A DNA stretch of 63,169 bases, the filler included, from Parachlamydiales bacterium (GTDB taxonomy: Bacteria; Chlamydiota; Chlamydiia; Chlamydiales; Parachlamydiaceae): the NCBI GenBank assembly GCA_020051075.1. It is 3 parts of 3 records of this genome, joined end to end, with 100 filler letters (N's around TTAATTAATTAA, not from the genome) between each part and the next. Parts side by side here need not be neighbours in the genome. Positions count along the whole stretch, not along the records: positions 24,486 to 50,961 come from JAGVJP010000090.1; 2 more parts are not named here. One strand, 5' to 3'. This document shows positions 24,927 to 28,331 of the stretch, one piece after another. Each line of letters opens with the position of its first letter. Position 1 is the first letter of the stretch. Both the position numbers and the translations under genes were made by a program. The notes beneath the pieces are model-generated. The model was not told the origin of the DNA. It ran no database searches and saw only the letters and a list, made by a program, of their open reading frames with translations.

Positions 24927-25148
24927 ATGAGATTACAAAACAATGACAACTTTACAAACAATCAGGTTAGTGAAGTTAATTTTCGAAGGCAAAATGAACC
25001 CTGCCCTAGATGCCTAGCGGTACTTCCGAATAACATAGAAGAATTGATTTGTCAATTTAGAATGCAGGACAAGGGGAGTCATTTGGGATCTCAGATTGGT
25101 TTCCAATTAAAAGAGAAGTCAGATACTGATCTCGGCGAATTGAAATAA
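24927..25148 (+). CDS. Small hypothetical protein (73 aa), candidate substrate/precursor
   Basis: AAGGA RBS, ATG, tandem stop codons, CPRC plus a third Cys. Confidence 0.5.
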   Translation: MRLQNNDNFTNNQVSEVNFRRQNEPCPRCLAVLPNNIEELICQFRMQDKGSHLGSQIGFQLKEKSDTDLGELK

Positions 25149-25215
25149 TATAGAGTTTTACAGAATATACAATTTTTAATATTTATGTGATTAGAAAACT
25201 TCTATATCGATTTCA

Positions 25216-25382
25216 AGTGTAACCGTTCACAGAGGTTCAGGCCTTCTAAAATGGTGTTTGAATGGATGAAATAGGAAGAAATCGGCAAAATTCATAGTTT
25301 TTTACTATTATTGAGTCGATTGAAGCGGTTTGTCTTTTAACAAACCTTTTAGGATGGTCTAATCCTCGTGAATGGTTACTCT
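25216..25382 (+). ncRNA. Putative structured RNA: ~165-nt irregular rod-like hairpin
   Basis: Nested stems GTAACCGTTCAC/GTGAATGGTTAC, GAGG/CCTC, AGGCC/GGTCT, TTCTAAAA/TTTTAGGA, GTTTG/CAAAC, AATCGGC/GTCGATT, ATAGT/ACTAT; non-Watson-Crick positions within these stems are G-U on the + strand. Confidence 0.55.
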
Positions 25383-25562
25383 CAAGGCCGAGCTGTTTCA
25401 GGAAGTGGTCCATAAATAGGAAAAAGTTAGTTCGTCTGACCCAACATCACTGTGAAAGGTCAATTATAAGAAATCGGTCTAAATAGAATCATCCTTTCTG
25501 GAATGATGACGATTGAAAGGTTGTTTTTTGAGACCGATAAAGAAAAAGTAAGGGGGAACATT

Positions 25563-26336
25563 TTGCCAAAAATTAGCATTGTTGGAAGAGGAGTAGATCC
25601 AGCAAAACATCTGAGTCTATCAGCTTTAAGCACACTCAAGGATGCGGATAAAATTGTTGGTATTGAATCAGAAAAAGAGTTCTGGAAGCAATTGCAAAAA
25701 GAATTTGGCGTTGGTGAAATTGAAGATTTAGGAAATCTTTATAGAAGTCAAGACAACGATATGGTCAATTATTGTCGTTTTGTTGATTATGTCCTTCATC
25801 TATCATCTGAAATTACACACCTCGCTCTACTTGTTGCAGGGCATCCTAGGCTTGGCGTCACGTTTATTGAGCTCTTAAAGAAAAATGCTCCAAAAGATAC
25901 CGAGATTGAGATTATAGAGGGTATTTCTAGTTTTGATGTGATGATCAACAATCTTGGGTTAGACCCACTGGAGCAAGGAACCGTTCTATTGGATGCTAAT
26001 CGGTTGTTGTTATTTCACTACAGAATTGAACCTGCATTATCATACTTTATCTATCATGTGTGCTCGATAGGTAACCCACAAACGAATTTCGTCGAGCCTT
26101 CATTAAATAATCGAATTGATCTCTTAAAAAATTATCTTTTAAAATTTTATCTAGAAAACAAAGAGGTTTTTCTTTGTCGTGCCTCAAATGGGAAAAATGA
26201 AGTCTCTAAAATTTTTCGAACCACGATTGTGAAGTTAGATTCTATTGTGAAAGAAATTGATTATAGCACTACTTTATACTTGCCATCCGAAAAACCATCT
26301 CAATTAGATTGGGATTATTTGAACATACTAAAGTGA
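25563..26336 (+). CDS. Tetrapyrrole-methylase-fold SAM methyltransferase, borosin (OphMA/SonM)-like
   Basis: SIVGRG, DL..LY, GHP, EGISSFD...NLGLDP, HVCSIG, STTLYLP; TTG start after a GGGGG RBS (alternative ATG 25503). Confidence 0.8.
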   Translation: MPKISIVGRGVDPAKHLSLSALSTLKDADKIVGIESEKEFWKQLQKEFGVGEIEDLGNLYRSQDNDMVNYCRFVDYVLHLSSEITHLALLVAGHPRLGVTFIELLKKNAPKDTEIEIIEGISSFDVMINNLGLDPLEQGTVLLDANRLLLFHYRIEPALSYFIYHVCSIGNPQTNFVEPSLNNRIDLLKNYLLKFYLENKEVFLCRASNGKNEVSKIFRTTIVKLDSIVKEIDYSTTLYLPSEKPSQLDWDYLNILK

Positions 26337-26340
26337 TTTT

Positions 26341-27726
26341 ATGAAACCATCATTTACCATTTTCAGAAACAACTGGATCAATGCAACATTGCTTATCACT
26401 TTTTTGCAACAGATGTTAGTGGCTGGAGGAACTTTTTTTTTAGGCCACCTTGCTAATTTGTATCCAACTGAAGGATTTCAACTAAGCTCGGCTATAATTT
26501 TATTTATCTGTATTCTCCTACCTGGAACTATTATTCACTATTGGGTTGTCTGGTGTACAACTCGAGCTTATAAATCTGCTCAATTGAACTATTTGAATGA
26601 ATACATAGAATCAAATTATAATCATCCAACGCACTGGCGCGATGAAAAATCTAAGCAGCAACGACATGATATGATGTGCAGAGGTGGTCAGGAAACTATC
26701 CAGTCAGCTGTATATTTTTTAGTTGATTTTACTGCTACAGGGTTGAATATTTTGCTAAATACGATTTCTATTATTCTTGTCACAGATTTGACTCTGGGTC
26801 TTATCATCATTGTAGCCGGTCTTTTAGGCTTGTGGATGATTCATCTTTTTGGAACATCGATTGCCGAAAGTAGTCGAAATGAAATTCTTGCAGATAATCA
26901 ACTCAATGCTCACTTAAGTCGAAGTTGGGATAACATTATTTTGGGCAATCAACTTTTCTTTGACCGCTGGAAAAACCATTTTGTACAACTCTTTTCAAAT
27001 ACAGAAAATGCCTCTCTTCAGAATGTCAGAAAAAGAGATTGGGCCGTTTCTATGGCTGGTATGGTTACAAACGCATTAGTTCTGGGAGGCGCACTGTTTT
27101 TAGCTTGGATGTATAAGGATACTGCTGGTTTTGTTTTGGCTATCTTGGTGATGTTGCCTAGAAGCCTCCAAATAGTCATGCATATTCAGATTATCCAAAA
27201 GTATGTTGCTCAATGGAAAGATCTACAAGAAAAATTAGCGGTCACCTACGATAGCCTTGCGGAACCTCAATACATTGATCTAAGACCACTGATTCAACAA
27301 GATCATGTCCGCGTAAGAGTTGGAAACCAAAATTACTCTCCTCAAGATATTGAAAATTGTTTGGGTAAGAATAGGTCTGGCCGTTTTACTATTACAGGTC
27401 CAAATGGGGTTGGAAAATCAAACCTTTTGCTAGAATTAAAAAATAAATTTAATTTGTCCGCGGCCTATCTTCCCGCACATCATCAATTGATGTTGCAGCA
27501 ATCTCAACTTAGCCTCTCCACTGGCGAAACAGCTCTTGCTGCCTTGAAAGATTTGGGATCAGCAAATTGCGATGTCCTTTTGTTGGACGAGTGGGATGCT
27601 AATTTATCGCCTGAAAATCGAACAATAATAGATAAAGTGATCGATCAACTGAGTCTCAAGCGGATTATCATAGAAGTTCGACATTCTACAGAAAATCCCA
27701 CATCTTCGTCATGTGCGCTGAAGTAG
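26341..27726 (+). CDS. ABC exporter (fused TM domain + compact ATPase)
   Basis: ~6 TM segments; GPNGVGKS, LSTGE, LLLDEWD, IEVRH. Confidence 0.85.
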   Translation: MKPSFTIFRNNWINATLLITFLQQMLVAGGTFFLGHLANLYPTEGFQLSSAIILFICILLPGTIIHYWVVWCTTRAYKSAQLNYLNEYIESNYNHPTHWRDEKSKQQRHDMMCRGGQETIQSAVYFLVDFTATGLNILLNTISIILVTDLTLGLIIIVAGLLGLWMIHLFGTSIAESSRNEILADNQLNAHLSRSWDNIILGNQLFFDRWKNHFVQLFSNTENASLQNVRKRDWAVSMAGMVTNALVLGGALFLAWMYKDTAGFVLAILVMLPRSLQIVMHIQIIQKYVAQWKDLQEKLAVTYDSLAEPQYIDLRPLIQQDHVRVRVGNQNYSPQDIENCLGKNRSGRFTITGPNGVGKSNLLLELKNKFNLSAAYLPAHHQLMLQQSQLSLSTGETALAALKDLGSANCDVLLLDEWDANLSPENRTIIDKVIDQLSLKRIIIEVRHSTENPTSSSCALK

Positions 27727-28331
27727 CTCACACAGTCCTTCTTACAACAAAGTGCTCAGCACAATGTAAACATTGTCCGTTTTCGAGCCCTGATTTGGAG
27801 AAGTTATTTCTCGCTCCACAGACCATTCAAGAAATTATGCATCAAACGGCTGCCAAATTAACTGTTCTTTCAGGTGGAGAGCCTTTTGAACATCCGCAGA
27901 TTACGGAGATTCTAACAGAGATGGCTAAACAACCCCATCCCTTTCGAATTGCAACTGGAGGTTTTGTGGATTTGTCTCCTTGGATTGAAAAATTACTAAC
28001 ACTTAGTCTAGCTTCAGGAGCTCTTGATGGGGTATCTATGGGAACCGATGTTCTGAGTTCTCGGGTTGATCATTCTCAATGGGTTCAAATTTGGAAAGAA
28101 AATATTCGATTATTATCTAAATTTCAGATTCCTTATTCTCTCACATTGACTTTAGGAGGCAATTTAGATTTTATTTGGTTAAATTTGTGGAAGTGGACCG
28201 ACTCATTTGATAGCATGCCTGAGTTTATTTACTTAAGGTATTCGAGGGGAGATTTATTAGAAGATTGGATTCATAAGCTCCAAAATACTTTTGGCGAAAT
28301 ACCAATCGTTCCAGACGAATTTTCCTCATAG
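27711..28331 (+). CDS. Radical SAM protein (short, no SPASM)
   Basis: CSAQCKHC (CxxxCxxC), SGGEP; overlaps the ABC gene stop. Confidence 0.88.
   Translation: MCAEVAHTVLLTTKCSAQCKHCPFSSPDLEKLFLAPQTIQEIMHQTAAKLTVLSGGEPFEHPQITEILTEMAKQPHPFRIATGGFVDLSPWIEKLLTLSLASGALDGVSMGTDVLSSRVDHSQWVQIWKENIRLLSKFQIPYSLTLTLGGNLDFIWLNLWKWTDSFDSMPEFIYLRYSRGDLLEDWIHKLQNTFGEIPIVPDEFSS

Follow-up and report, generated by a model that had tools for sequence, protein, structure and literature searches.

The window analysed here is a stretch of 63,169 nucleotides from a Parachlamydiales bacterium (GCA_020051075.1), in which contigs C29, C30 and C37 have been artificially joined, and this report concerns a four-gene cassette on C30. 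From 5' to 3', and all on the (+) strand, the cassette encodes a short candidate precursor peptide, an S-adenosylmethionine (SAM)-dependent methyltransferase (MT), an ATP-binding cassette (ABC) exporter and a radical SAM (rSAM) enzyme (Table 1). An earlier note on this DNA had singled out the last three genes as tightly coupled, and their coordinates are confirmed, with a gap of 4 bp between the MT open reading frame (ORF) and the ABC gene and an overlap of 16 bp between the ABC and rSAM genes. The note had also envisaged a split system, without a fused core, for a peptide that is ribosomally synthesized and modified post-translationally (RiPP); a separate gene for a 73-amino-acid (aa) precursor was indeed found, at the exact start of the note's interval but unnamed there. 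The cassette is conserved, intact and under purifying selection in all four genes, with a coding precursor, a borosin fold with a remodelled active site, and an rSAM cysteine triad. We read the locus as a cassette for an exported RiPP, and give this model as a whole a probability of roughly 60%.

Table 1. Features of the cassette and its surroundings, positioned along the whole window (BBD, borosin-binding domain; NBD, nucleotide-binding domain; MITE, miniature inverted-repeat transposable element).
Feature	Position	Strand	Basis or remark
Shine-Dalgarno-like site AAAGGA	24914..24919	+	7 nt 5' of the precursor ATG
Candidate precursor, 73 aa	24927..25148	+	From the N-terminus: a variable part, the conserved core, an amphipathic follower helix and a variable tail
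Conserved core P27-R28-C29-L30-A31-V32-L33-P34	25005..25028	+	Proposed modification site; aligned precursors
Amphipathic segment P34-F44	25026..25058	+	Proposed enzyme-binding follower replacing the BBD; hydrophobic moment
Borosin-sister SAM-dependent MT (PF00590), 257 aa	25563..26336	+	Profile, model, residue counts
ABC exporter half-transporter, 461 aa, membrane domain and compact NBD	26341..27726	+	Profile; ABC-type P-loop
Minimal rSAM enzyme, 206 aa, C15-x3-C19-x2-C22 and GGE	27711..28331	+	PF04055; model
MITE-like element, ~160 bp, terminal inverted repeats	25219..25379	.	Between precursor and MT
Flanking AAA ATPase (PF01637)	28467..29924	+	Multi-copy in the genome; not beside relatives

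The 73-aa ORF contains P-R-C-L-A-V-L-P-N-N-I-E-E-L-I and conforms to the pattern P-R-C-L-x3-P-x-N-I-E-E-L, within a family consensus of R-x5-P-x-[ND]-[IL]; R28 and P34 are invariant across 26 aligned precursors. We assembled 83 loci (42 from species genomes, 38 from metagenomes, one further locus, one from a plasmid, and the window), and 70 remained once 13 that were at least 95% identical had been dropped. With a precursor profile trained on the genome-collection loci, the family motif was found upstream of the MT in 63 of these 70, and the 26 metagenome loci kept out of the training yielded it in 24 cases; the seven misses comprise two loci without upstream sequence, three with a broken or partial MT, and two, L058 and L120, that are unexplained. 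Away from the expected position the best profile score was 13.1 bits, a value reached by the genuine L052 precursor, which is encoded on the strand opposite; the next was 9.6. When this genome was translated into 115,662 six-frame segments, the 73-aa ORF, itself in the training set, scored 36.8 and the next segment 12.8. A regular expression for the motif, derived from the same loci and with redundant loci counted, matched 88 times within 750 nt upstream of an MT and once elsewhere in 842 kb.

Across the 26 P-R-C precursors all six Arg and all four Pro codons are used, entropy is 0.37 at codon position 2 versus 1.64 at position 3, and pN is 0.22-0.26 versus a pS of 0.86-0.97. Codon variety together with pN below pS indicates that the motif is conserved as protein, and sites of the AGGA/GGAG type precede an in-frame ATG in most of these precursors. 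The shortest precursors of the family, at 31-39 aa, hold little besides the motif, and the N-terminal parts are unrelated, so the motif is the handle and probably also the core. Neither this precursor nor any other of the five tested had a Pfam family above cut-off. A BBD, which most but not all borosins carry on the precursor or the MT, was likewise not detected, either with Pfam on the five precursors or in the MT model, although no dedicated BBD model was used; relatives of 31-39 aa are too short for its five helices. The segment P34-F44 is the sole part of the peptide with a hydrophobic moment above 1.6, and since this pattern is conserved in relatives we infer that it serves as the enzyme-binding follower.

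The same ORF might instead be a regulatory leader, acting as an attenuator or ribosome-arrest peptide, with the enzymes working on a small molecule or another protein. It stands first in the unit behind a strong Shine-Dalgarno site and carries an Arg/Pro motif, and Arg/Pro motifs occur in arrest peptides. This reading nevertheless seems highly improbable to us, given that gammaproteobacterial and Sphingomonas-type precursors carry the motif in 2-4 tandem copies (the R-x5-P core block is the repeat unit of multi-core relatives, and 15-aa tandem repeats occur), that L126 has two separate precursor genes while that of L052 lies on the strand opposite the MT, that core-MT spacing ranges from 70 to 555 nt across loci, and that the partner genes are of peptide-tailoring type. 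On this comparative evidence the 73-aa ORF is very probably the substrate of the cassette enzymes.

The three-gene unit delimited in the earlier note recurs elsewhere, with MT, ABC and rSAM genes in this order in 23 of the 70 loci, mostly from Chlamydiota and Bdellovibrionota. In a quick tree the MTs of these loci cluster as a single branch (97%) that contains a chlamydial sub-branch (99%), and the flanks differ outside close kin. A survey of 401 genomes of the window's phylum, in which one genome went unscored in one scan, found the cassette or its remains in 12: it is intact in G000, G023, G239, G272 and G347, cut by contig ends in G242, frameshifted in the ABC gene in G335, and decayed in G124, G162, G215, G369 and G373. 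Among 401 genomes of the Bdellovibrio phylum the rSAM gene was present in five, one of them decayed. The Parachlamydia acanthamoebae proteins P0018 and P0264 belong to the MT and rSAM families, and a sister type is carried by a conjugative Serratia liquefaciens plasmid near Tn3. Horizontal spread of the cassette is likely, and the horizontal acquisition suggested at the outset agrees with this patchy distribution and the changing flanks, as expected of a mobile cassette.

Sister loci carry major facilitator superfamily (MFS) or other ABC exporters and, in place of the rSAM gene, other enzymes. An HExxH protein occurs in 17 loci and had no match in Pfam, NCBIfam or PDB sequences; its label comes from its motif and an Atlas call, the nearest Atlas clusters including 'aKG-HExxH-type peptide beta-hydroxylase' (0.95). 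Some sister loci have an HExxH metallopeptidase-like gene, labelled a peptidase from its motif only and also unmatched in family and domain searches. A protein arginine methyltransferase (PRMT)-like enzyme is found in 13 of the 70 loci (E 4e-19 to PRMT7), and other partners are 2-oxoglutarate (2OG)-Fe(II) oxygenases and an AspH-type hydroxylase. These peptide-tailoring partners lend support to peptide tailoring as the function of the family. The core was P-R-C in all 21 rSAM loci having a core, with rSAM in none of the 36 loci with other cores, and R-L in all 16 HExxH loci having a core; both associations follow descent and are not independent counts.

The peptide could alternatively be a scaffold or handle, methylation marking it for cleavage, with a tiny Arg-derived molecule or an unmethylated neighbouring stretch as the exported product. 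There is a precedent in SamA1, where leader methylation is needed to release an unmethylated core according to the main text of Lee et al. (10.1101/2024.01.09.574750), and the MFS exporters of sister loci, some with the motif-labelled metallopeptidase-like gene, would suit such a scheme. But the shortest precursors and the 15-aa tandem repeats leave little besides the motif to be released, sequences flanking the motif are not conserved, and partner enzymes track the residue after the Arg; we consider the scaffold explanation quite improbable.

Two sister types deserve mention in their own right. In Serratia, Rouxiella, Aeromonas and Paludibacterium (L051, L053, L054, L060, L063, L135) a multi-core precursor with repeats of 25-26 aa accompanies the MT, an alpha-KG-HExxH-like protein, a 2OG oxygenase and an MFS exporter, with one copy on a conjugative plasmid, and such loci are simpler to approach biochemically than the cassette of the chlamydia. 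In L046-L049, L055, L064-L066, L124, L129 and L131 bacterial PRMT-like enzymes adjoin Arg-containing precursors and are candidate peptide arginine methyltransferases.

The longest MT ORF spans 25503-26336, and residue numbering follows it, but translation most likely starts at the TTG at 25563, which has AAGGGGG six bases upstream and would give a protein of 257 aa as in homologues. The protein matches PF00590 (E 2e-9), and a profile of 50 homologues found borosin chains at E 6e-26 to 6e-20, with the next enzyme at 7e-6. Its structural model (pLDDT 92.6, with no extra domain) gave Z scores of 26.7 to MroMA and 26.1 to SonM (VIA), at an rmsd of 2.5-2.6 A over 250 residues and 18-22% identity, versus 17.1 to CbiF and 15-17 to corrin, RsmI-like and diphthine enzymes overall. 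By profile and fold the MT thus stands nearer to borosins than to RsmI or Cob methylases, as had been anticipated; YabN was compared by hidden Markov model (HMM) score alone. The family numbers ~130 clusters at 50% identity, and no fused or longer forms (540-2000 aa) were seen among 7999 candidates scored, which is weak evidence. One 684-aa protein, P0177, joins an MFS-like N-terminal part to an Asp-clade MT.

A further rival view, of the MT as a tetrapyrrole or YabN-like methylase in an incidental island of genes, draws on its best NCBIfam match, the YabN N-terminal region (NF052436), at 54.9 bits, and on xPGHP and DPxE-like motifs that we take to be shared with YabN. The cut-off of that model is 525 bits, however; the match spans positions 1-226 of 486 without the MazG part, and canonical borosin-motif proteins themselves score 33-100 bits, so the match is non-discriminating. 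With the Z scores favouring borosins as well, and gene order and precursor conserved across two phyla, we leave this explanation very little weight.

The likeness to OphMA and SonM claimed in the earlier note holds for fold and profile but only in part for the active site. Relative to dbOphM, the tyrosines Y66 (Y80 here) and Y76 (Y90) are kept, whereas R72 is replaced by D86, Y98 by A112, E151 by D164, D154 by R167 and Q172 by H185. In a redundant set of 236 clade proteins, from which 16 Arg-type and six intermediate proteins were separated by motifs, Y80 is present in 217 of 222, Y90 in 218 of 221, D86 in 215 of 220, R167 in 227 of 234 and H185 in 221 of 231. The YGHP and DCLFAD signatures, judged here on motifs and not on the published HMMs, are absent from the MT, which has AGHP and FDVMINN instead, and a Tyr precedes GHP in only 6 of 224 clade proteins. 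The Asp clade separates from Arg/YGHP proteins with 100% SH-aLRT in two quick trees, which were midpoint-rooted and held no characterised borosin or YabN sequences. On this evidence we regard the MT as a sister of the borosin enzymes and not a member; it probably works like one while lacking the sequence signatures of membership.

Positions 86 and 167 are occupied by D and R in 211 sequences and by R and an acid in 14 of 17 Arg-bearing sequences; the Arg-type set has R at position 86 in 15 of 16 and an acid at 167 in 14 of 16, and solved MroMA and dbOphMA carry Arg and an acid at the equivalent positions. R167 lies three residues from D164, the counterpart of SonM E146 on a SonM-OphMA residue correspondence that we partly presume. 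In SonM (PMC8429565), E146 and Q167 contact R67, and E146 is placed in the R67 network; R67A is nearly inactive, R67K and Y71F lose activity ~100-fold, and Y93F has a minor effect. The simplest reading is that D86 and R167 represent a reciprocal charge swap that would keep a guanidinium in the site; the Arg of the substrate may also play a role there.

These replacements also bear on what is methylated. The borosin active-site Arg, the YGHP Tyr and the WQ Gln are replaced throughout the clade, the substrate Arg is invariant, and acidic pairs bind Arg in PRMTs, so the MT might act on a side chain of the same precursor, be it the Arg28 guanidinium held by D86/D164, a thiol or another group. We think this unlikely: a separate PRMT-like enzyme beside the MT in 13 of the 70 loci would then be redundant, and the MT retains the two tyrosines whose SonM counterparts contact backbone groups. 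The Cys sulfur in particular was rejected as a target, as Cys-free cores (R-L, R-Q, R-N) exist and share the same MT active site. If the precursor is the substrate, backbone amide N-methylation at or beside Arg28 is in our estimate somewhat better than an even bet.

The rSAM protein matches PF04055 with CxxxCxxC (E 6e-9), and its Cys triad is invariant in 20 of 20 aligned sequences with no further conserved Cys. The model (pLDDT 93.6) is a partial barrel, nearest in fold to viperin, SuiB, PFL-AE and SkfB (Z 14-15.5 at 10-16% identity), a range that assigns no reaction. The family comprises ~120 clusters of ~200 aa, and an Atlas search with this protein returned generic radical SAM clusters only. 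By analogy with enteropeptins, a thioether from Cys29 to Arg28 or Pro27 is a tentative assignment to which we give about one chance in three, the remainder being epimerisation or another radical reaction. In one database gene call, P0301 (178 aa), the rSAM gene starts later (27711-27794 affected) and the Cys triad is dropped, so that annotation misses the cluster; a late start probably also explains why several homologues of 166-173 aa have no PF04055.

The nearest relatives outside the family are 32-34% identical and stand, in two chlamydial genomes, behind a PqqD-rSAM gene and a Cys peptide of 26-29 aa. They belong to a second chlamydial RiPP-like cluster on the minus strand (L086:1249-7700 in G201:C7 and L087:1140-7200 in G369:C65), whose peptide has a leader-like Y-x-K-P-x-I motif and T-C-Y-L near its end. 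After the peptide come the PqqD-rSAM (434-439 aa) and the short rSAM, and further genes encode a class I methyltransferase, an enolase-C-like protein, a GNAT protein and an MFS exporter.

The ABC protein had been taken for a typical RiPP exporter, and it is an exporter-type half-transporter, with profile matches to NdvA, BmrA and Sav1866 (E 9e-13 to 7e-9); it is atypical in its shortened NBD and in having no peptidase domain. Between Walker A and the signature, 19 profile positions stand against 84 NdvA residues (~65 missing), and Walker A, LS[ST]GE, LLLDEW and the His switch are kept while the Q-loop Gln is absent. There is no C39 peptidase domain, since the protein starts with the membrane domain and its NF045998 match begins at model position 149. 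Orthologues at 53-75% identity track the cassette, and a distant subfamily (~25% identity) is common in chlamydiae. The compact-NBD family is wider still (L080-L085, L090-L093), with the Q-loop Gln absent and LLDEWDANL invariant; of 46 genomes from the window's family, 38 have matches, mostly at ~25% and apparently outside clusters.

Several observations count against the model of a RiPP cassette. The chlamydial cassette is often decayed. The link between P-R-C cores and rSAM is confined to a single clade and amounts to one event rather than 21, many of the 36 other-core loci are short, and many R-C cores occur without rSAM; in L124 PRMT-like and 2OG genes accompany a P-R-C core while rSAM is absent within 1.9 kb, and in L026 the ABC gene is followed by a transposase, in the place of the rSAM. 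The rSAM enzyme of 206 aa, modelled as a bare barrel, lacks a RiPP recognition element (RRE) and SPASM and Twitch domains, and enzymes acting on small molecules (viperin, QueE) are among the folds nearest to it. At 10 inspected loci of the distant ABC subfamily no MT or rSAM of this family was nearby. In L058 and L120 the profile found no precursor beside a full-length MT, and in the present copy the precursor tail, at 45 aa, exceeds all others (19-40 aa) and a MITE-like element parts precursor from MT. Finally, because R67 is near-essential in SonM, an Asp at the equivalent position could mean different chemistry. Set against these points is a short conserved precursor gene linked to predicted tailoring enzymes and an exporter, the arrangement by which a RiPP locus is recognised.

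In the proposed pathway the precursor would be translated and gripped by the MT through its amphipathic follower helix, without a BBD, and its P-R-C-L-A-V-L-P core would be methylated with SAM. The lost active-site Arg would be offset by the D86/R167 swap, and D86 or D164 may hold the substrate Arg. The bare rSAM would then abstract a hydrogen from the core and, most likely, join the Cys29 sulfur to Arg28 or Pro27. Because the cassette encodes no protease, host proteases would trim the peptide, and the ABC protein would export the short product. The lifestyles of the carriers prompt the guess that this product is aimed at hosts, prey or competitors.

A bolder interpretation, which we hold to be doubtful, is that the family is a RiPP class of its own and not a borosin subtype, marked by a rewired MT family, a universal R-x5-P motif and swappable partners. 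The MT may possibly use the substrate's own Arg in catalysis, with the partners diversifying the adjacent residue. If this were true, the branch of chlamydiae and Bdellovibrio would use a bare rSAM to close a tiny ring on P-R-C, the resulting N-methylated thioether peptide would serve intracellular and predatory bacteria, and its exporter would be an ABC protein without most of its helical subdomain.

The contig joins, at 24386-24485 and 50962-51061, are runs of N with a 12-base linker, and the cassette starts 441 bp into C30; as the contig begins at 24486, nothing to the left of that position is a true neighbour, and the end of C29 overlaps C51, into which and not into C30 it continues. An RlmI-like methyltransferase, which lies on another contig, was rejected as a cassette part. 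As for the flanks first described, an AAA ATPase does lie downstream, though outside the unit, whereas the ATPase-like fragment upstream did not stand: it consists of 30 codons truncated by the edge of C30 and resembles an ATPase only weakly, through a match at E 0.47 with the C-terminal end of a P-loop ORF of 451 aa. The AAA ATPase was rejected as a cassette part, as it has tblastn matches on eight other contigs of the same genome (five full length, 28-49% identity) and a real match was absent from all 42 genome-collection loci. The short intergenic stretch before it contains an imperfect direct repeat.

The MITE-like element was rejected as a conserved part of the cassette, being an insertion with matches on 11 other contigs of this genome at 75-86% identity. 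It has 12-bp terminal inverted repeats and a hairpin fold, the present copy being degenerate, and the precursor core lies 555 nt from the MT here versus ~110-255 nt in most relatives. The AT-richness noticed at first sight is real but modest: the GC content of the three enzyme and exporter genes is 0.374 versus a genome mean of 0.431 +/- 0.030, a value as low occurs in 2.8% of 969 equal-sized genome windows, and their GC3 of 0.30-0.33 corresponds to the 5th-11th percentile of 1480 long open frames. A promoter scan gave an uninformative 19 promoter-like sites versus 12.6 +/- 3.6 in shuffles, and a terminator scan gave none.

Taken together, these results describe an uncharacterised RiPP-like family built on a borosin-sister MT with a defined precursor. 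In peptide drugs N-methylated backbones are highly valued, and the ribosomal enzyme families able to install them are few. As the clade keeps the fold and swaps a residue essential in SonM, it either puts the unsettled mechanism of borosins to a natural test or represents new chemistry, and a short precursor with one fixed motif and no detectable binding domain makes for a simple experiment. The survey of Lee et al. (10.1101/2024.01.09.574750) includes, in its main text, 733 borosin N-methyltransferases without a precursor, some of which the R-x5-P motif may explain. For environmental chlamydiae, whose host-protective effects are described as unexplained in PMC9666466, the cassette is a defined four-gene natural-product candidate with close relatives in cultured Bdellovibrio. 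The same text reports RiPP-like clusters predicted in chlamydiae by antiSMASH, so the supposition that no such pathway had been described there stands for this type and not for RiPP-like clusters in general. The main texts of Imani et al. (10.1101/2021.12.24.474128) and Lee et al., which set out types 0-X, the YGHP/DCLFAD rule and Legionellales systems without a BBD, describe, as far as covered here, no Asp clade, R-x5-P motif or rSAM partner, although their supplements may list some of the MTs. A literature search, with most subscription papers outside its scope, found no description of this clade, of the motif, or of a borosin-like MT and an rSAM on one core.

Among known systems, the type IV ABC exporters (NdvA, BmrA, Sav1866, PCAT) share with the cassette protein a membrane domain and an NBD with Walker A, signature, Walker B Glu and His switch; unlike them it is ~65 residues short, including the Q-loop Gln, and unlike PCAT it has no N-terminal C39 peptidase domain. 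The rSAM enzyme has the CxxxCxxC motif and a core Cys in common with sactipeptide and ranthipeptide maturases, without their RRE or SPASM/Twitch domains. In enteropeptins, of the KGR subfamily, an rSAM enzyme links Cys to an adjacent Arg-derived residue and a methyltransferase acts as well; there the rSAM enzyme has auxiliary domains, the methyltransferase belongs to the Fe-S enzymes and an arginase is also needed. None of these is found in the cassette, and the analogy is a chemical one only. Enteropeptins are small sactipeptides with a thiomorpholine ring according to PMC13361665, where a reference title also names N-methylornithine. The N-terminal MT domain of YabN (NF052436), named cd11723 in the main text of Imani et al., belongs to the same superfamily as the cassette MT and is its nearest NCBIfam model, but the cassette MT has no MazG part and sits in a mobile cassette with a precursor rather than being a core gene.

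With the borosin enzymes proper, namely SonM/SonA (Shewanella oneidensis, a type IV split borosin) and the fused OphMA, MroMA and dbOphMA, the cassette MT shares the TP_methylase fold at Z 26, its highest structural match. It differs from them in Arg72 to Asp, Tyr98 to Ala or Pro, Gln172 to His and Asp154 to Arg, in having neither YGHP nor DCLFAD, and in its partners, which across the family are rSAM, HExxH, PRMT-like and 2OG enzymes. According to the main text of Lee et al., no conserved elements are common to borosin precursors, whereas this family has one strongly conserved precursor motif and no detected BBD. In G349 (L094:2769-5309) and G243 (L095:436-2934), on the minus strand, proteins of 830-850 aa with YGHP, Arg, DxLCxD and WQVG, with two oxygenase-like genes near that of L094, are candidate true borosins in Chlamydiota. 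A Legionella plasmid locus encodes an MFS exporter, a 65-aa ORF without R-x5-P and an MT that differs from ours in having YGHP, Arg, DCLFAD and WQ and falls among the Arg-type enzymes; it may be one of the Legionellales borosins without a BBD of Cho et al. 2022 (via the main text of 10.1101/2024.01.09.574750). Those BBD-less borosins are, like the cassette, split systems with a short precursor. As in split borosins generally, the cassette MT is a stand-alone enzyme of ~260 aa that adjoins a short separate peptide gene, and it keeps the counterparts of Y66 and Y76.

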